From: Candidatus Woesearchaeota archaeon
GTDB lineage: Archaea; Nanobdellota; Nanobdellia; Woesearchaeales; JAFCFN01
Length of the DNA: 64,000 bases
Reading direction: 5' to 3'
Assembly: GCA_017608625.1 (NCBI GenBank)
Contig: JAFCFN010000001.1
Coordinates: 19,828-83,827, forward strand
Shown: positions 29,362 to 36,108 of the stretch, piece by piece
Layout of the letters: each line of letters opens with the position of its first letter
Position numbering within the stretch: the stretch's first letter is position 1
Notes under the pieces: model-generated
What the model saw: the letters and a program-made list of their open reading frames with translations, nothing else
The model's database searches: none
Told to the model about the DNA's origin: nothing
Translations under genes and position numbers: made by a program

Positions 29362-29575
29362 AAATTTTAAGGTTATTGTAAAACCCAATTCTTCTAAAAA
29401 TGAGATAATCGATTTTGATAAAAACAATAATGTGTTAACAGTTAGGATTGCTGCTCCTCCTGCGAAGGATAAAGCAAACAAGGAATTAACAAAATTTCTT
29501 TCCAAGAAGTTTAAAAAGAAAGTTAGTATTGTGAAAGGTTTGAAGAGTAGAGAAAAAATAATTACTCTTTTTTAA
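29354..29575 (+). CDS. DUF167 (YggU/UPF0235) family protein
   Basis: The sequence KVIVKPNSSKNEIIDFD...LTVRIAAPPAKDKANKEL fits that family. Confidence 0.55.
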   Translation: MTENFKVIVKPNSSKNEIIDFDKNNNVLTVRIAAPPAKDKANKELTKFLSKKFKKKVSIVKGLKSREKIITLF

Positions 29576-30599
29576 TCCAGTCTTTTACATTAAATTTTTT
29601 GATTAATCCATTGCTTTGTTTTATAATCACTTGTTTTAGACCTGCATTAATTATTACTCTTTTACATAACTTACAAGGTTCTATGCCACAAATCATATTA
29701 GTTTTAACATCCCTTCCAAATAAATATAGTACGCCTCCTAAAACAGATGTTCCAGCTCTTGCTGCATTAATTATTGCGTTCATCTCAGCATGAACTGATC
29801 TGCAAAGCTCATACCTTTCTCCAGAAGGAATCTTCAGTTCTTCTCTTATGCATTTTCCAATATCAGTACAATTTTTTGCCCCTCTTGCTGCTCCACAATA
29901 GCCAGAAGAAATTATTTGGTCCTCTTTTACAATTATTGCTCCAAACTGCCTTCTTAAACAAGTAGCTCTTCTAGAAACTGCTTCAGCTATACCCAAATAA
30001 TATTCATCTTTTGATGGCCTTTTTTTGATTAATTTTAATCTTAGATCATAAACTAATCTATCAAGTTTGTTGTATAATTCTTTAAATCCTTTATCATGAA
30101 TAATTGTTATTTTTGCCATTTTTTGGCATTTTTTGAGCTGTTGTCCTGGACCTTTTATTTGAGATTCTTTTTTTTCTAACTTTAAAAATTCCTTAAATGT
30201 TTTTGGATCCTCTTCCCTATTTCTTGCCTTCATCCTTTCAAATCTTAATTTTGCAGGAGCATGTATATTAATTAAAAAGAAATCAGGCCTTTTTCTTAGG
30301 GCATTTATTTCAGCAGGATGTCTTATTGAATTGACAACATAATCTTTTTGATCCTTAAATGTTTCTAACGCTCTCTCAGCTAAAACAGCATTACCATATT
30401 TCTCTCTTAATTCATTTCCTAGCTTTTGCAAGTTTTCTCTTGTTTTCTTTATTCCTCTTCTATCAGCTTCTTCTCTAATGGCGTCTGATAAAGAATAATG
30501 AATGAAACCTTTTTTAACAAGATATTCTGCTGCAGTGTCTTTTCCAGCACAAAAACTGCCAGTTAATCCAATTATCATACTTTTCTTATCAATAAACAT
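29562..30599 (-). CDS. Fusion protein: P-loop nucleoside/nucleotide kinase-like domain plus dCMP deaminase (zinc cytidine-deaminase fold)
   Basis: The N-terminal P-loop is IIGLTGSFCAGKDTAAEYL. The C-terminal domain has HAEMNAI (H-A-E) and PCKLCKRVI (PCxxC), the dCMP/CMP deaminase zinc ligands. Confidence 0.65.
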   Translation of the reverse strand: MFIDKKSMIIGLTGSFCAGKDTAAEYLVKKGFIHYSLSDAIREEADRRGIKKTRENLQKLGNELREKYGNAVLAERALETFKDQKDYVVNSIRHPAEINALRKRPDFFLINIHAPAKLRFERMKARNREEDPKTFKEFLKLEKKESQIKGPGQQLKKCQKMAKITIIHDKGFKELYNKLDRLVYDLRLKLIKKRPSKDEYYLGIAEAVSRRATCLRRQFGAIIVKEDQIISSGYCGAARGAKNCTDIGKCIREELKIPSGERYELCRSVHAEMNAIINAARAGTSVLGGVLYLFGRDVKTNMICGIEPCKLCKRVIINAGLKQVIIKQSNGLIKKFNVKDWIKKE

Positions 30600-30681
30600 T
30601 TATTAAAATTTTACTATTCTAAAATAGTTATGATTGAGGATATAAATGTTTAAATATTGTAATTAAGAATTTTTAATTAAG

Positions 30682-31410
30682 TTGGAGGGATGTATGGAGT
30701 CTAAGCTTAATATTAAACTTCTTAAATATACGCCAAATCCAATAGAAACTATTGCAATGGCTGCCAAGCTTTGCTATTCACCTAGTAATATAAGCAATTT
30801 AGAGGAAAAGATATCTAATCAAGATCAGATAAAATTTGTGGAATATCTAGTAAAAGTAGGTCATCATTCTCCTCTTGAACATGCGTCTTTTACTTTTGGT
30901 ATAGAAGGTATTTCTAGAGCTTGCTCGCATCAGTTAGTTAGACATAGGATTGCATCGTATTCCCAACAAAGCCAAAGATATGTTAGAGCCAATGATTTTG
31001 ATTATATAATTCCACCTTCAATTAAGGAGGCTGGTTTGGAAGAAGAGTTTAGAAAGGATATGGAGTATCTACAAAAAAGATACAATTTTTATAATGAAAA
31101 ATTAGGCAATAAAGGAGAGAAGTCTAATCAGGATGCAAGATTTATTTTACCGAATGCTGCAGAGACAAAGATTGTTGTCACAATGAATGCGAGAGAACTA
31201 TTATATTTCTTCTCCAAAAGAACATGTAATAGAGCTCAGTGGGAAATAAGAAATATGGCAAAAGAAATGTTAAAGTTAGTTTATCCTGTTGCTCCTGCTA
31301 TTTTCAAATATGCTGGACCATCATGTGTAACAGACAGATGTCACGAAGGAAAGTTAAGTTGCGGCAAAGCTAATGAGGTAAAAAAGGAGTTTGAAAACTT
31401 TTTCAAATGA
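30682..31410 (+). CDS. thyX: Flavin-dependent thymidylate synthase
   Basis: The ThyX motif RHRIASYSQQSQRY (RHRxxSxxxxSxR) is present. Confidence 0.85.
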   Translation: MEGCMESKLNIKLLKYTPNPIETIAMAAKLCYSPSNISNLEEKISNQDQIKFVEYLVKVGHHSPLEHASFTFGIEGISRACSHQLVRHRIASYSQQSQRYVRANDFDYIIPPSIKEAGLEEEFRKDMEYLQKRYNFYNEKLGNKGEKSNQDARFILPNAAETKIVVTMNARELLYFFSKRTCNRAQWEIRNMAKEMLKLVYPVAPAIFKYAGPSCVTDRCHEGKLSCGKANEVKKEFENFFK

Positions 31411-32009
31411 GAAGCTATTTTATTGTTTTGGAAGGAATAGATGGTTGTGGTAAAGGGACAATAGCAACCAAACTAGTTGAATATCTATTTAGAAAAAATA
31501 AAAAATATTCTGTTATATTAACAAGAGAGCCAACTTATGGTAAATATGGAGCTAGGATCAGACAGATTCTAGCAAAAGAGAAAGATCCTATTGCTGGCGC
31601 TAAAAAATGTTTTTATTTATATGTTAAGGATAGAAAAGATCATTCAAAAAAACTTATCCTGCCCCTTTACAAACAAAGTGGAAATATTATAATTTCTGAT
31701 AGATATTATCATTCAACAGTGGCTTTTCAGCATGTACAGGGAAATTCTATGACAAAGTTGATTAAAGTACATAAAAAATTTCTAAGACCAGATTTAACAA
31801 TAATTCTTGATCTTCCTGCAAAGAAAGCCATTGGGAGATGTGGTGGGAAAGAAAAATTTGAGGAGTTAAATTTTCTAGAAAAAGTAAGAAAAGTTTATCT
31901 TAAATTTCCAGTATTATTGGATGAAAATATTTTAATAATAAATGCTGACCAGAGTAAAGCAAAGGTTTTAAAAGATGTCAAAATAGCTATTGATAAATTA
32001 ATCTATTGA
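31407..32009 (+). CDS. tmk: Thymidylate kinase
   Basis: A P-loop (IVLEGIDGCGKGT) is present and the DRY segment is conserved (ISDRYYHST). Confidence 0.8.
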   Translation: MRSYFIVLEGIDGCGKGTIATKLVEYLFRKNKKYSVILTREPTYGKYGARIRQILAKEKDPIAGAKKCFYLYVKDRKDHSKKLILPLYKQSGNIIISDRYYHSTVAFQHVQGNSMTKLIKVHKKFLRPDLTIILDLPAKKAIGRCGGKEKFEELNFLEKVRKVYLKFPVLLDENILIINADQSKAKVLKDVKIAIDKLIY

Positions 32010-32076
32010 TTTTTTTCCTCATTATCATCTTTAATAAATTCTGTTAATTCTCTATTATTCTTTATTGTTTCATAAC

Positions 32077-32346
32077 TTATTTTTTTATCATTTGGGTAAT
32101 GCATTCTACCACCTCTTTTTTTGTTGGCATTTCTCCCTGCCATGATTTGATTACATCTTCATTATCATCAACCAATAAGATAACAGGTGTTGTTGCTATT
32201 GAATAAAAACTAGCTTCTGCTAGACCATCCCTTTCAGCAGTGTTATACCTTTCTACTACTACCCCTTCTTTTTCAAGCTCATCGCATAATTCTTTAGCTT
32301 TAGGACATTTTGGGCAGTTTGGTTGCCAAAAAAGTTTTATTTTCAT
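32077..32346 (-). CDS. Glutaredoxin/thioredoxin-like small redox protein (NrdH-like)
   Basis: An N-terminal CPKC active site (WQPNCPKCPKAKE) is present. The gene is 89 aa and sits directly upstream of nrdD in the same operon. Confidence 0.6.
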   Translation of the reverse strand: MKIKLFWQPNCPKCPKAKELCDELEKEGVVVERYNTAERDGLAEASFYSIATTPVILLVDDNEDVIKSWQGEMPTKKEVVECITQMIKK

Positions 32347-34421
32347 TGTAACTCACTCCTATGTCTATCTTTAAGTTCTGCTAGTTTACCTTTGTTCCAA
32401 GAGCTAACTTTTGAAAAAAATCCAGTAACTCTTGTTATGTGTTCTATGTTACTTGAGTTACAAAAAGGGCAAGTTTCCTGTAACCCTCTTGCTGTTTTGT
32501 TGCAATCTATGCAAGTTGTGAATTCAGGAGAAAATGCGATTTGATCGTTTGTTGTATTCTTGAACGTTTTAATAACAAAATTGGAGATAGATGGTGGCAA
32601 AGGCTTGGATTCTCCTAACCAAACATGAGTTAGTGCGCCTGCTTCTATCATTGGATGGAATAAACCTTCGTCATGCACTCTTTTAATTGGATCAATAGGA
32701 GCACTAATATTATAGTAAGTACTATTTGTGTAGTAAACCTCGTTTTTACCCACATTACCCTTAACAACCTGGCTTGCGTGTATTGGATAATGTTTTAAAT
32801 CAAGTTTTGCTAATCTATACGCTGTTGATTCAGCAGGAGTCTGTTCTAAGGCCAATTTTATATTATTTTTCTTTGCTAATCTTTCAGCCTCTTTATTCAT
32901 GTGAGCAATCACTTTCAACCCAAATTTTAAGGAAGATTTGCTTTCATGCATTTCTTGACCAGTAAAATGCTGTACCATTTCATTTAAACCAAGCATTCCT
33001 ATCAAAAAACTTGCATTATTGAATCTATAGTATGGTTCACCATCTTTTTCCATTGCTAATAAAGATAAAGGTCCTGCTTTGCCTAGATCAAGCAAAGATT
33101 TGATAAATGCTCTTTTTTCTAAATGAGCTCTTATTGCAAGTTCTATTCTTTTTGTTAATAACTCAAAAAGTTCATCTTCGTTTCTACTCTCATAAGCGAT
33201 TCTTGGAAGATTAATAGTTACATTTTGCATAGCAGAGTATCTCATCTTCCAAGGAGTTAGGGCATCCTCTAAATCTGATTTTCTTAGTTTGAATGCTAGT
33301 CTGCAACATTCTGAAATCTTTGCTGTTTCACCTCTATCAAATACATAGTAAGTGTTACCTTTTTCAGCAGAAACTTTAGATATAAGATCAAGAAATTCTT
33401 CATGGCCTTCTGTTCTAAAAAATTCTTCAGTCATATGTACTTCTGGCTTTGGAAAGAAGAAAGGTCTACCATTTGCATCCCCTTCTAGATAAACATTAAA
33501 TAATGCTTTTGCAAATTTTTGAGCTTCTGGGAGATAGTCTGAATATGTGTTGCCTGTGAATTTTCCTCCTGGCCCTATTGCCTTTACCTCTCTGAAGTGT
33601 TTTGGGCATTCCCAATATATATTAAGGTCTGAAAATATACTCTGGCCACCTCTCGCAACAGCTTGCTGAGCAAACTCATATACTAGTACTTGGGCTAGTT
33701 GTTTTAGTTCTTTCTCATTCATACCTGTGAGATAAGGAGCTAAGAAGATGTTAACAGCATCCCATCCAATTGCTCCTGCAAAGCACCCTTGTAAAGCTGC
33801 TGAAAATTTGATTAGATGTTCTAATAAAACTAGAGCATATTTTGCTGGTCTTGCAATTGAAAGAGAGTTTGGCAAACTTAAACCAAATTTAGCAACATAA
33901 GCCATATTGTTCCCAGAACAATAAGGCCTGTCAATAAAACCAAGATCATGAATATGAATATCTCCTTTCATATGAGCTAAGCTGATATCAGAAGAAAAAA
34001 CATTCATTAAAGCGTATTCTTTTTTTATCCCTTCAGCAAGAGTAAGATTAGTTGCTTCTGGTCCATGAGGAATATTTGCATTTTCTTTATTATGGGCTCT
34101 GATTATCTGTCCAACATCATAAATAGGAAAGCCTAATCTGGCGTGTTTGTTTCTTATATCTTCTAAACCATATTCAACAAGTTTTGCATTTGTCAATTCT
34201 CTTACTAAAGGCGCTGTTATATTTTTCACTCCAGCGTTTTTTATCATGTTTTCAACTTCTCTGCTAACTATATCTGCAACAACAGGATCTATTCCAGTTT
34301 CTCTTATTAGAGCATTAACTATTTTTTGCCTGTTCCATTTTACAAGATCTTTGCTAGAAGTTCTTACAAATAAAGCTATTTCAGTACTATCCTCTTTTTC
34401 CATCCTAAAATTGGGAAACAT
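32343..34421 (-). CDS. nrdD: Anaerobic ribonucleoside-triphosphate reductase (class III)
   Basis: The N-terminus is ATP-cone-like. The C-terminal zinc ribbon is CIDCNKTARGLQETCPFCNS, and the glycyl-radical motif is TRVTGFF. Confidence 0.8.
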   Translation of the reverse strand: MFPNFRMEKEDSTEIALFVRTSSKDLVKWNRQKIVNALIRETGIDPVVADIVSREVENMIKNAGVKNITAPLVRELTNAKLVEYGLEDIRNKHARLGFPIYDVGQIIRAHNKENANIPHGPEATNLTLAEGIKKEYALMNVFSSDISLAHMKGDIHIHDLGFIDRPYCSGNNMAYVAKFGLSLPNSLSIARPAKYALVLLEHLIKFSAALQGCFAGAIGWDAVNIFLAPYLTGMNEKELKQLAQVLVYEFAQQAVARGGQSIFSDLNIYWECPKHFREVKAIGPGGKFTGNTYSDYLPEAQKFAKALFNVYLEGDANGRPFFFPKPEVHMTEEFFRTEGHEEFLDLISKVSAEKGNTYYVFDRGETAKISECCRLAFKLRKSDLEDALTPWKMRYSAMQNVTINLPRIAYESRNEDELFELLTKRIELAIRAHLEKRAFIKSLLDLGKAGPLSLLAMEKDGEPYYRFNNASFLIGMLGLNEMVQHFTGQEMHESKSSLKFGLKVIAHMNKEAERLAKKNNIKLALEQTPAESTAYRLAKLDLKHYPIHASQVVKGNVGKNEVYYTNSTYYNISAPIDPIKRVHDEGLFHPMIEAGALTHVWLGESKPLPPSISNFVIKTFKNTTNDQIAFSPEFTTCIDCNKTARGLQETCPFCNSSNIEHITRVTGFFSKVSSWNKGKLAELKDRHRSELQ

Positions 34422-34587: not shown

Positions 34588-35076
34588 CTAACTTGCTTTG
34601 TATTGTAAGAATGATGTCTTGTTCTGATGCAAAATCTTACCATTTATTGCATCAATTTTAAGATTTATTACATTGAATGACTTAGTTAAATAAGTAATGT
34701 TCCAAACTGTACCCATATCAAGGTTCTGCAGAATTGCTATTGTTTCTGCTATTATTTCCTTGTGTTTCTTTTGTTCTCTCTCTGCTATATCCAGTGCTTT
34801 ATCCAAGTTTATTTTTATCTTATCTATATCTAGTTTATGCAAAATTCCTTGTTTTTTAAAAATATCAGCAGGAGGGCTTATTTTTATTTTTTCTTCCATA
34901 AAGAAAGCAGTTACTTTGTCTGCTTTTTTATCATAATATCCAATTTGCCATGCCGTTTGTTTATCTCCTTTTAGCATAATGAAACCATGAACTAGGTATG
35001 TTTGTTTATTTTGCTTTTTCCATTCTTTGAATTCTTTACTATTATGCAATCTTTCTACTTCTTGTTTTAGGCCCAT
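34588..35076 (-). CDS. Hypothetical protein
   Basis: The ORF has coding-like composition and no motif I recognise. Confidence 0.3.
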   Translation of the reverse strand: MGLKQEVERLHNSKEFKEWKKQNKQTYLVHGFIMLKGDKQTAWQIGYYDKKADKVTAFFMEEKIKISPPADIFKKQGILHKLDIDKIKINLDKALDIAEREQKKHKEIIAETIAILQNLDMGTVWNITYLTKSFNVINLKIDAINGKILHQNKTSFLQYKAS

Positions 35077-35133: not shown

Positions 35134-36108
35134 TTGTTTTTATGGTCATTAGATATGGTACAGATAAGCGCCAAATTAAAGTCATTATTGGAGAAACAGC
35201 ATTATGAAGTAGTTGGTAGACACTCTGCTGTTGAGATTTGTGGTTGGACAAAGAAGAGCTTATTAGATAAAGGATATTGTTATAAGCAAAAGTTTTATGG
35301 AATTAAAAGTCATAGATGCTGTCAGATGACTCCTTCAGTAGGTTTCTGTAATCAGAGATGTATATTCTGCTGGAGAGCAATTGAAGAAACAGTAGGCAAT
35401 AAAATGGACAGAGATGTTGATGATCCTAATGAAATTATTAAAGGCTGTTTAGAAGCTCAAAGAAGAAAGCTCTCTGGTTTTGGTGGGAATCCAAAGTTGA
35501 ACAAAAAAAAATTCAAAGAAGCTCAAGATCCTATGCATTTTGCAATATCTCTTGCTGGAGAGCCTACATTATATCCAAAACTACCTGATTTAATAAAAGA
35601 ATTGCATAAACAAGGGAAAACAACATTCCTTGTTACAAATGGAACTAATCCCGCCATGCTTAAAAGGTTGATAAGGGAAAATGCTATGCCAACTCAGCTT
35701 TATATTAGTCTAGATGCTCCAAATAAAGAGTTATATAAAAAAATAGATATGCCTGTAATAAAAGGTGGTTGGGAAAGATTGCAACAAAGTCTAGCTTTGA
35801 TGAAAAAATTCAAGAGAAATGTTCTTAGAATAACCGCTATAAAAGGTTTAAATATGGAGCATGCTGAACAATACGCTGCTTTGATCAAGAAATATAAGCC
35901 ATTGTTTGTTGAGGTTAAGGCTTATATGTGGGTGGGATGGAGCAGGAAGAGATTAAGTATTGAGAATATGCCCTTGCATTCTGATATTAAAAGATTTTCC
36001 AAAGAAATTGCTAAATATTCTGGTTACAAGATAATTGATGAAAAGAAAGAGAGTAGAGTTTGCTTGCTTGCTGAAAAGGATTTTAAAGACAGGAAATTAC
36101 GGTTCTAA
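35134..36108 (+). CDS. taw1: tRNA 4-demethylwyosine synthase (radical SAM, Taw1/TYW1)
   Basis: A CxxxCxxC cluster (FCNQRCIFCW) follows extra Cys residues (SHRCCQMTPS). The string AVEICGWTKKSLLDKGYCYKQKFYGIKSH and the later AISLAGEPTLYP closely resemble archaeal Taw1 as I recall it. The true start is probably the internal MVQIS. Confidence 0.7.
   Translation: MFLWSLDMVQISAKLKSLLEKQHYEVVGRHSAVEICGWTKKSLLDKGYCYKQKFYGIKSHRCCQMTPSVGFCNQRCIFCWRAIEETVGNKMDRDVDDPNEIIKGCLEAQRRKLSGFGGNPKLNKKKFKEAQDPMHFAISLAGEPTLYPKLPDLIKELHKQGKTTFLVTNGTNPAMLKRLIRENAMPTQLYISLDAPNKELYKKIDMPVIKGGWERLQQSLALMKKFKRNVLRITAIKGLNMEHAEQYAALIKKYKPLFVEVKAYMWVGWSRKRLSIENMPLHSDIKRFSKEIAKYSGYKIIDEKKESRVCLLAEKDFKDRKLRF

Follow-up and report, generated by a model that had tools for sequence, protein, structure and literature searches.

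What is a P-loop nucleotide kinase domain doing on the same polypeptide as a dCMP deaminase, in a gene that lies beside thymidylate and ribonucleotide reductase (RNR) genes in a small DPANN (Woesearchaeota-like) archaeon? The locus could serve the everyday supply of deoxynucleotides, or it could encode one of the anti-phage enzymes that have the same domain architecture. To address this question, we analysed the 64-kb window (the whole stretch of DNA under study) plus 10 kb past either end, ~84 kb in all, and compared the encoded proteins with curated families, solved structures and homologous loci.

Gene content and organization of the cluster

Five DNA-precursor genes are grouped here, with all of the ORFs located where the sequence-only reading had placed them. 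These are the kinase-deaminase fusion (29562..30599, minus strand, 345 aa), thyX and tmk on the plus strand, and a redoxin gene and nrdD, both on the minus strand. In Pfam and NCBIfam profile searches the products match their respective families far above chance, showing that the gene set is real and had been read correctly. The assignments are also consistent with the pathway proposed in that reading, leading from dCMP to dUMP, dTMP and dTDP, together with NTP reduction. The fusion gene is flanked by TFS, DUF167, thyX, tmk and a Taw1/TYW1 radical-SAM gene at 35134, the last of which had been suspected to be Taw1 and scores 421 bits against TIGR03972 (cutoff 318).

The flavin-dependent thymidylate synthase gene thyX (30682..31410, plus strand) matches Thy1 with 244 bits and TIGR02170 with 197 bits (cutoff 88), and its RHRxxxxxxxSxR motif reads RHRIASYSQQSQR, from residue 87. 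A start at ATG 30694 is more likely than one at 30682, since GGAGGG lies 5 nt upstream of it and the JGI gene call (238 aa) agrees. The dTMP kinase gene tmk (31407..32009, plus strand; PF02223, 124 bits; TIGR00041, 138 bits, cutoff 83) overlaps the thyX stop by 4 nt. Judged by these profiles, ThyX and Tmk are standard enzymes encoded in a 4-nt-overlap operon, in the order and on the divergent strand originally described. Depending on the thyX start, 82-94 bp separate this operon from the fusion gene; direct reading of this AT-rich region (30600..30693) reveals a TATA-like TTTAAATA ahead of thyX and TTTATAT, on the minus strand, ahead of the fusion.

An NrdD2-type reductase and its overlapping redoxin

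The nrdD gene (32343..34421, minus strand) encodes a class III RNR, as had been proposed from its glycyl radical site RVTGFF: the protein scores 465 bits against PF13597 and 423 bits against TIGR02487 (cutoff 326), and RVTG667FF aligns with RITGYL and RIVGYL of solved NrdDs. Its residues include C168, C372-C373, E526, a zinc ribbon (C637/C640/C651/C654) and the glycyl radical G667. In an alignment to the Thermotoga maritima enzyme (4coi), C168 falls at C125, SECCRL at SCCR, and E526 at the Glu of NIEQ. When the subtype criteria of PMC4493059 are applied, the protein passes the model cutoff, has the glycyl-radical Gly after the zinc ribbon, and possesses both the third Cys and the active-site Glu. 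Its family membership makes it a glycyl-radical reductase of NTPs, and its active site has the NrdD2 set (Cys168, Cys372-Cys373, Glu526).

The adjoining redoxin gene (32077..32346, minus strand, 89 aa, C11-P-K-C14) overlaps the nrdD stop by 4 nt, and the pair also occurs in an 80%-identical relative. Its product had been called glutaredoxin-like. The thioredoxin fold holds (Thioredoxin_3, 28.8 bits, GA 24.8), but a preference for glutaredoxin over thioredoxin is not assignable, and the Glutaredoxin model falls below its own GA. Because NrdD carries the NrdD2 residues (Cys-Cys plus Glu), the redoxin is likely to be its reductant, and would re-reduce NrdD in the manner of thioredoxin with NrdD2 enzymes; the NrdD2 signature thus explains the overlapping gene. 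The likeness to the thioredoxin-dependent NrdD2 systems of T. maritima and N. bacilliformis comprises the third cysteine (CC in an SCCR-like motif), the active-site Glu and the coupling of a redoxin gene to nrdD. The window system differs in having a small CPKC redoxin instead of a classical Trx, in having FF after the radical glycine where the compared NrdDs have Y-L, and in lacking an adjacent nrdG.

The absence of an NrdG-like activase gene next to nrdD, pointed out earlier, is real but unremarkable. The NrdG motif CxxxCxxC was searched for in any frame of the 64-kb window, where only that of Taw1 was found, and in the 10 kb past either window end, where there was none. Since ~84 kb is a small part of the genome, a missing adjacent NrdG is not evidence of anything unusual, and the activase would be encoded elsewhere.

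Domains of the kinase-deaminase fusion

No canonical enzyme with such a fusion was known to the sequence-only reading. In fact, this architecture was published in 2021-22 for DcdV (Vibrio cholerae VC0175), also termed anti-phage dCTP deaminase (Hsueh et al. and Tal et al., preprints 2021), and two curated models for it, NCBIfam NF041025 and PADLOC dCTPase, match the window fusion. What is new is a compact, uncharacterised variant.

The C-terminal domain (29565..30023, minus strand, aa 193-345) scores 64 bits against dCMP_cyt_deam_1 (PF00383; GA 25). Both motifs on which a dCMP deaminase had been proposed, H270-A-E272 and P308-C309-x-x-C312, are present, and an alignment of the zinc ligands found them intact and invariant across 25 homologues. 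Further motif residues are C214, G233-Y-C-G236, N274-A275 within HAEMNA, and the insert cysteines C243, C249 and C265. Of the allosteric motif GYxG, G, Y and G are invariant in the compact family, so that in the fusion the motif appears largely intact. The domain matches Streptococcus mutans dCMP deaminase (2hvv) at E 3e-14, its best solved matches are dCMP deaminases, and its identity to stand-alone clostridial deaminases, as to phage deaminases, is ~55%.

Compared with canonical dCMP deaminases (S. mutans 2hvv/2hvw, T4 Cd 1vq2, human DCTD 2w4l and ComEB, TIGR02571), the window domain shares the fold, HxE...NA, the cysteine before strand 1, the zinc-bearing insert, PCxxC and, in a GYxG form, the allosteric motif. 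It departs from them in reading GYCG where they have G[YW]NG, in an extra insert between HAE and PCxxC, and in the fused kinase. It is not a ComEB-type deaminase according to the TIGR02571 equivalog (59.6 bits, cutoff 219). The features that define the dCMP deaminase clade (Iyer et al. 2011, PMC3239186) are all found in it, and its motifs identify it as a zinc-dependent enzyme of that clade, with catalytic ligands complete and structural zinc-site cysteines present.

The N-terminal domain (30045..30578, minus strand, aa 8-185) matches AAA_17 (44 bits) and AAA_18 (40 bits) in Pfam. It contains a P-loop, G14-x4-G19-K20, and four arginines (R42, R93, R122, R126) that align with arginines of yeast uridylate (UMP/CMP) kinase 1UKY. 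A PDB profile search ranked SSO1041 (3h0k/3lw7) best, at E 3e-30, above CoaE, yeast UMP kinase and AK1, and a Foldseek search with the AF2 model of the fusion (pLDDT 85.6) matched 3lw7 with a TM of 0.85. SSO1041, a UPF0200 'adenylate kinase-related protein', is accordingly the closest solved relative. The two have a common P-loop and arginine set; they differ in that SSO1041 is a stand-alone protein of unassigned function, whereas the window domain is fused to a deaminase. Fold and residues together identify a UPF0200-type NMP-kinase-fold domain with a P-loop lysine and four arginines.

Other kinase families were also considered. The check for a CoaE-like N-terminus left the dephospho-CoA kinase models below threshold (PF01121, 19.5 bits, GA 27; TIGR00152, 17.1 bits, cutoff 65.6), and Legionella pneumophila CoaE (4ttp) has residues other than Arg where R42 and R93 align. 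The Pfam DNMK match is confined to the P-loop and, at 21 bits, stays below GA, and the fusion is not a PRK08356 equivalog because its 75.7 bits fall short of the cutoff of 189. The kinase had been thought to be either a (d)CMP kinase or a deoxynucleoside kinase. No dNK-like match appeared in the profile searches; the (d)CMP-kinase proposal, in contrast, is reasonable because the domain has an NMP-kinase fold with arginines aligning to those of yeast UMP/CMP kinase. The two guides to the substrate are the fusion partner and the conservation of these arginines.

By its likeness to UPF0200 and NMP kinases, and by its conserved arginines, the domain looks catalytic. There is nevertheless an alternative, which we regard as unlikely though deserving of serious attention, that the fusion is solely a regulated dCMP deaminase and that its P-loop domain is a nucleotide-binding sensor gating the deaminase, the rest of the cluster being read as before. 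P-loop mutants of DcdV and of the Escherichia coli dCTP deaminase lose activity, and phosphotransfer has not been demonstrated in either. The residue following the P-loop lysine is D or G, not S or T, and SSO1041 was crystallised with AMP while its activity is unassigned. However, the four arginines are kept in fused, split and stand-alone forms of the compact family as well as in SSO1041, and a pure sensor would not need them. Moreover, the deaminase has an allosteric motif of its own, of the G[YW]NG type and mostly preserved as GYxG, and the kinase domain is also encoded by separate genes and by a stand-alone paralogue.

Relationship to DcdV and anti-phage dCTP deaminases

Like DcdV, the window fusion combines an N-terminal P-loop kinase-like domain with a C-terminal zinc-dependent domain of the dCMP deaminase clade, with HAE and PCxxC conserved. 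A second alternative is that it is a DcdV-type anti-virus enzyme, depleting dCTP and dCMP upon infection, and that it adjoins thyX by chance. The fusion is colinear over both domains (residues 8-325) with a Photobacterium protein named anti-phage dCTP deaminase by PGAP (27% identity, E 3e-23). The PADLOC dCTPase model matches residues 5-325 with 192 bits (E 4.5e-57), over profile positions 152-484 of 630 and with no curated cutoff listed, and NF041025 is the best NCBIfam match. Yet the NF041025 score of 132.4 bits is far below the equivalog cutoff of 400; close relatives of the fusion score 113-159 bits, whereas scores of 488 and 498 bits were obtained for two real defence proteins. At 345 aa, the window fusion is also much shorter than the defence proteins (499-576 aa), without their insertions in both domains or their N- or C-terminal extensions. 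Its allosteric site reads GYCG, compared with GCND in the defence protein, and the NMP-kinase arginines that it retains are missing from both defence proteins examined.

The surroundings of the gene differ as well. Defence loci have a 56-61-aa ORF upstream, but ahead of the window fusion there is only the divergent promoter region of 94 bp, with no room for a small upstream ORF or a DifV-like 174-nt RNA, and an Rfam search of this region gave no match. Defence genes lie beside Cas3, recombinase, IS3 or conjugation genes, whereas the position of the window fusion is conserved in housekeeping synteny down to 54% identity, and gene calls and clustering of its neighbours brought up no defence or mobile-element genes. 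A defence role is accordingly improbable. Alignments, scores and motifs place the window fusion as a compact sister form of the DcdV architecture, and not as a member of the defence family or a defence gene.

Distribution and genomic context of the compact family

Fused homologues number at least 120. The compact form is frequent among DPANN archaea and CPR bacteria, where the two domains are found fused, permuted or encoded by adjacent overlapping genes. For example, the domain order is reversed in one homologue (P0023); at 34 loci both domains are adjacent genes on the same strand, in either order and often with a 4-bp overlap; and a second, canonical ComEB-like subtype of deaminase also has this kinase domain as a fusion partner. 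The fusions, the reversed order, the gene pairs and the second deaminase partner point to a functional link between the two domains.

In relatives of 80%, 54% and 54% identity, thyX and/or tmk adjoin the fusion gene and the TFS/DUF167/Taw1 synteny is retained. A 48%-identical relative with different synteny has an SHMT-x-thyX-fusion operon, and another locus presents an nrdR-nrdD-nrdG-x-kinase-deaminase cluster. Unsupervised clustering of 373 neighbour ORFs identified no metabolic families other than Tmk, ThyX and SHMT that recur in both fused and split lineages; the transcription factor TFS likewise recurs, reflecting archaeal synteny. It should be noted that at most CPR and other distant loci the fusion gene does not adjoin thymidylate genes. 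The link to thyX and tmk is thus recurrent, not universal, and in part reflects synteny common to related archaea. The genomic context is that of thymidylate metabolism, not defence.

Proposed role of the fusion

The explanation that we favour, with somewhat better than even confidence, is that the cluster provides housekeeping deoxypyrimidine and dNTP supply for a DPANN archaeon, with the fusion as a compact, non-defence sister form of the DcdV architecture; the strong PADLOC match counts against it. The fusion would be located at the dCMP branch point between dCTP and dTTP. Its deaminase would supply dUMP to ThyX, while the fused kinase would interconvert dCMP and dCDP, drawing on the same pool of deoxycytidine nucleotides. 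Running in reverse, the kinase could convert dCDP, and via Ndk also dCTP, to dCMP, which would then be deaminated irreversibly. Phage T4 offers an analogy in the functional pairing of gp1 dNMP kinase and Cd dCMP deaminase on a common dCMP pool, although the T4 enzymes are separate proteins of other subfamilies and the window domains are fused.

This assignment leaves some latitude. The fusion is not the sole possible route to dUMP because a canonical dCTP deaminase (Dcd; TIGR02274, 187 bits) is encoded on the same contig, ~7 kb outside the window, and the phosphorylation state of the substrate is not fixed at dCMP because the homologous defence enzymes deaminate dCTP as well. That the fusion is mainly a housekeeping zinc-dependent dCTP deaminase, whose kinase fold binds the triphosphate and whose dUTP passes to a dUTPase, has little probability: the defence enzymes and PBCV-1 bi-DCD do use dCTP, class III RNR delivers triphosphates, and the 80% relative has a dut gene overlapping the fusion gene's 3' end, but no dut homologue was found in the window, Dcd is already at hand, and the solved proteins most similar to the deaminase domain act on dCMP.

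Extending the housekeeping explanation, we tentatively suggest, as a possibility that we hold with considerable doubt, that the compact fusion is a truly bifunctional DPANN/CPR housekeeping enzyme in which an active (d)CMP kinase and the deaminase share one pool of dCMP, acting either as a controller of the branch point between dCTP and dTTP or in an energy-conserving route from dCTP through dCDP and dCMP to dUMP, and that it was also the stock from which DcdV-type defence proteins arose. If this is true, the compact family would serve as a simple and non-toxic model in which to study what the defence enzymes use their kinase domain for.

Gene content and surroundings of the cluster

The cluster is an ordinary, coherent housekeeping dTTP/dNTP module. 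All five ORFs reported by the sequence-only reading are present at the coordinates it gave, with strong family matches. The kinase-deaminase fusion (29562-30599, minus strand, 345 aa) matches AAA_17 and AAA_18 in its N-terminal half and dCMP_cyt_deam_1 (64 bits) in its C-terminal half. On the plus strand, thyX (Thy1, 244 bits; TIGR02170, 197 bits; cutoff 88) has its probable start at ATG 30694, shortly after a GGAGGG, rather than at TTG 30682, and its stop is overlapped by 4 nt by tmk, which lies 3' of it (TIGR00041, 138 bits; cutoff 83). Back on the minus strand, the gene for an 89-aa thioredoxin-fold redoxin with a CPKC active site (residues 11-14) lies beside nrdD (32343-34421; PF13597, 465 bits; TIGR02487, 423 bits; cutoff 326), with a 4-nt overlap at the nrdD stop. 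As had been proposed, TYW1/Taw1 is encoded by the radical-SAM gene at 35134 (TIGR03972, 421 bits; cutoff 318). Between nrdD and this gene, a PepSY-like protein of 162 aa is encoded (34588-35076, minus strand), and five related fusion loci have a homologous ORF at this point as well. Family membership also backs the pathway originally drawn from these genes, in which NrdD reduces NTPs, ThyX converts dUMP to dTMP and Tmk converts dTMP to dTDP; the deaminase domain would feed ThyX, and the CPKC redoxin would reduce NrdD.

The flanking genes are archaeal, with TFS, Taw1, aIF5B, EF-1beta and class I LysRS among them, the GC content of the window is ~30%, and two metagenome contigs from JGI (61.8 kb and 127.6 kb) match it. 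Rfam and tRNA scans of the whole 64-kb window returned no family and no tRNA gene, and a tblastn search of the window for dUTPase, using Dut from the relative with an 80%-identical fusion, returned no match.

The class III RNR, its reductant and its activase

In an alignment with Thermotoga maritima NrdD (4coi), C168 of the window NrdD pairs with C125, E526 with the Glu of NIEQ, and S370-E-C372-C373-R-L with the SCCR motif, which is MGCR in T4. A third Cys and an active-site Glu define the NrdD2 subtype (PMC4493059). Since both residues are present, the enzyme is, by its sequence, of the NrdD2 type, the kind whose reductant is of the thioredoxin type rather than formate, which would account for the redoxin gene overlapping nrdD. 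The nrdD-redoxin pair is also found in the 80% relative. The protein has a zinc ribbon (C637/C640/C651/C654) and a glycyl radical residue, G667, within RVTGFF. The residues following the radical glycine are F-F here, compared with Y-L (RITGYL, RIVGYL) in solved NrdDs, and this variant is kept in the 80% relative. The N-terminal ATP-cone match falls below threshold (21.5 vs 25.8 bits).

The initial observation that no NrdG-like activase lies beside nrdD can be extended to ~84 kb, as a six-frame scan for CxxxCxxC across the window and 10 kb past each end recovered Taw1 only. An NrdG-like gene does occur next to nrdD in the L167 lineage, and we read the missing nearby NrdG as an unlinked gene, not as a sign of an activase-free RNR. 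On present evidence, the lack of an adjacent NrdG is of no importance.

Gene neighborhoods of related fusions

The order TFS-DUF167-fusion-thyX/tmk-...-Taw1 is kept in relatives of 80%, 54% and 54% identity. In the 80% relative (L082), a dUTPase gene (L082:7011-7442) and the fusion gene overlap at the 3' end of the latter, and the place of tmk is taken (L082:4217-5173) by a gene whose 318-aa product has the P-loop-like motif GGPDMSGTGTQ; this product has no Pfam or NCBIfam match and may be a divergent dNMP kinase. One of the 54% relatives has, 1.7 kb downstream of its fusion, an additional gene for the kinase domain by itself (L084:8813-9397); this stand-alone paralogue is 194 aa long and shares 38% identity with the N-terminal domain. 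In two relatives, the ThyX beside the fusion is about twice the usual length (539 aa, L086:4062-5681; 505 aa, L087:3470-4987), which suggests a tandem-duplicated ThyX. In a relative of 48% identity, where the synteny differs, SHMT-x-thyX-fusion forms a co-directional operon. In the L167 lineage, the order (L167:2798-8147) is nrdR-like (147 aa), nrdD (681 aa), nrdG-like, one ORF, kinase (181 aa) and deaminase (199 aa); this NrdD has an MCCRL motif and an ORF end without an obvious RxxGY glycyl-radical motif, and the nrdG-like gene is a radical-SAM gene with GCNFRCPFCYN.

Unsupervised clustering of 373 neighbor ORFs from 63 fused or split loci identified Tmk, ThyX and SHMT as the only metabolic families common across lineages and gene configurations, and detected no recurring defence or mobile-element genes. 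TFS is also recurrent among archaea, reflecting synteny. It should be noted that the SHMT matches near split pairs have weak raw BLAST scores (~100 bits) and partly represent synteny within one lineage; they were accepted because the representative of the neighbor cluster has an SHMT-like THKT..GP..G motif. The link between the fusion and thymidylate genes is recurrent, not universal: two CPR loci have housekeeping neighbors unrelated to thymidylate, and most of the distant fusion loci lack a nearby thymidylate gene.

Domain composition of the fusion

The sequence-only reading knew of no enzyme with this fusion and left its N-terminal domain as dNK-, CMPK- or CoaE-like. The first of these points does not stand. 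The same architecture is that of DcdV, the anti-phage dCTP deaminase: in NCBIfam, the fusion scores best against NF041025 'anti-phage dCTP deaminase' (132 bits, E 2e-38), its residues 5-325 are matched by the PADLOC dCTPase model (192 bits), and a Photobacterium defence protein aligns over both domains (27% identity, E 3e-23). A preprint describes DcdV as a P-loop kinase joined to a deoxycytidylate deaminase, acting on dCMP and dCTP, requiring both domains and inhibited by an upstream RNA, with homologues 'across the tree of life', a few of them archaeal. Likewise, Tal et al. describe a 576-aa Escherichia coli enzyme of the same build that loses defence when either domain is mutated, and report homologues as sparse, in only 2.5% of genomes. 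No solved structure of the entire fusion was found in the PDB, the Foldseek matches being to single domains only, and no useful literature was found on UPF0200/SSO1041, or on DcdV after 2022. The fusion is a compact, uncharacterised, new variant of a known architecture and not a new kind of enzyme.

The N-terminal domain proved to be UPF0200/NMP-kinase-like. Among solved structures, the uncharacterised SSO1041 of UPF0200 comes closest (3h0k/3lw7; profile E 3e-30, Foldseek TM-score 0.85), followed at ~1e-7 by CoaE, UMP/CMP kinases and AK1. In the profile alignment, R42, R93, R122 and R126 coincide with arginines of yeast uridylate kinase (1UKY). We take these four to be the NMP-phosphate and LID arginines of NMP kinases. 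The Legionella pneumophila CoaE structure (4ttp), unlike the fusion, has no arginines at the R42 and R93 positions. CoaE or a T4-type dNMP kinase was rejected, the CoaE and DNMK Pfam models giving P-loop-only matches below threshold, as was a deoxynucleoside kinase, for which there was no dNK-like match.

The best matches of the C-terminal domain are the dCMP deaminases of Streptococcus mutans, T4, human and cyanophage. The zinc ligands, which had been singled out for checking, are present (HxE and PCxxC), as is the remainder of the dCMP-deaminase clade signature of Iyer et al. (the NA motif, a Cys before strand 1 and a Cys-bearing insert). By its motifs, this domain is a catalytically complete dCMP-clade deaminase. 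The AF2 model of the fusion has good per-domain confidence (pLDDT 85.6) and an unreliable inter-domain orientation (pTM 0.59).

Distribution and linkage of the two domains

A search of a large protein database yielded 2468 homologues, the best 120 of which are 297-400 aa long, all with both domains; named sources among these 120 are Woesearchaeota, Nanoarchaeota, Micrarchaeia, Patescibacteria and other CPR groups, and Nitrospirota. Among 169 loci recovered from genomes and metagenomes (the metagenome search using the full fusion alignment as query), 32 have the fused gene and 34 have kinase and deaminase genes side by side on one strand, whichever comes first, and frequently with a 4-bp overlap; such split pairs were found in Aminicenantes, 'Eubacteriales' MAGs and elsewhere. 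One Falkowbacteria protein (P0023, 381 aa) is circularly permuted, with the deaminase preceding the kinase. In some fusions, the same kinase is joined to a second, canonical ComEB-like deaminase subtype, and the deaminase subtype of the window fusion also occurs solo (~55% identity) in many Clostridia, Saccharibacteria, Elusimicrobia and phage contigs. Together, fusion, fission, permutation and partner swapping argue for strong functional coupling of the two activities.

A viral origin of the fusion was rejected: the best 80 IMG/VR matches cover essentially the deaminase domain only, and BFVD matches are single-domain. The best viral structural match, the unnamed BFVD entry G8DGT5 (E 4e-14, 185 aligned columns, 30% identity), is 328 aa, longer than one domain, and might be a viral two-domain relative.

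Candidate functions of the fusion

Given the dual substrates of DcdV, the fusion could be a housekeeping dCTP deaminase. A canonical dUTPase-fold dCTP deaminase, Dcd, is encoded on the same contig (TIGR02274, 187 bits, cutoff 93; DCD Pfam, 135 bits), at L172:17915-18478, 6.6-7.2 kb before window position 1 and on the window minus strand. The organism thus has the standard dCTP-level route, making a dCMP-level role of the fusion likelier than a dCTP-deaminase role. The neighbors of dcd are a run of small ORFs without family match and an SLT/phage-lysozyme-like gene (L172:15184-16401), and this region is possibly an integrated virus or a mobile block of another kind.

Alternatively, the kinase domain could be a sensor only. 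The four arginines are conserved in compact fusions, in SSO1041, and in kinases that are split off or stand alone, whereas two plasmid-borne defence proteins used for comparison (Photobacterium, 510 aa, 'anti-phage dCTP deaminase'; E. coli, 499 aa, 'deoxycytidylate deaminase') carry Ala in place of R42, Lys in place of R93, and a shortened LID. We favor an active (d)CMP-type NMP kinase that would have its dCMP pool in common with the deaminase, and that may divide dCMP between dCDP and dUMP or, in the reverse direction, draw on dCDP to give dCMP.

That the fusion is itself a defence enzyme is the explanation to which its database matches would lead. Against NF041025 (cutoff 400), the scores are 488 and 498 bits for the two defence proteins, compared with 113-159 bits for the window protein and five diverse relatives. 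Each domain of the defence proteins contains large insertions, and the chain is extended by ~35 residues at the front and ~90 at the end; the window protein has none of these. Their genes lie next to Cas3, a recombinase and IS3, or next to conjugation genes, each with a 56-61-aa ORF upstream, whereas a divergent promoter region, 94 bp long and AT-rich, is common to the window fusion and thyX. The allosteric motif G[YW]NG of canonical dCMP deaminases, degenerated to GCND in DcdV, is GCND in the Photobacterium protein and GYCG at the aligned position here, with G, Y and G invariant in the family of the window protein. Despite the resemblance, the fusion falls outside the defence family.

Implications

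Judging by the cluster, these reduced-genome archaea have retained a dTTP branch of their own: NrdD2, which is thiol-dependent, and the redoxin that goes with it, together with ThyX, Tmk and a dCMP deaminase. A canonical Dcd is encoded not far away. The interest of the fusion extends to the defence proteins, in which the kinase domain is essential and its role unexplained. The compact relative is widespread, has a housekeeping context and, because the NMP-kinase arginines are still present, offers a tractable system that may provide a clue to this role; it may also show the recruitment of a metabolic enzyme pair into immunity. The PADLOC match means that automated surveys may miscall dCTP-deaminase defence in DPANN and CPR genomes, where a compact gene matching this model is probably metabolic.
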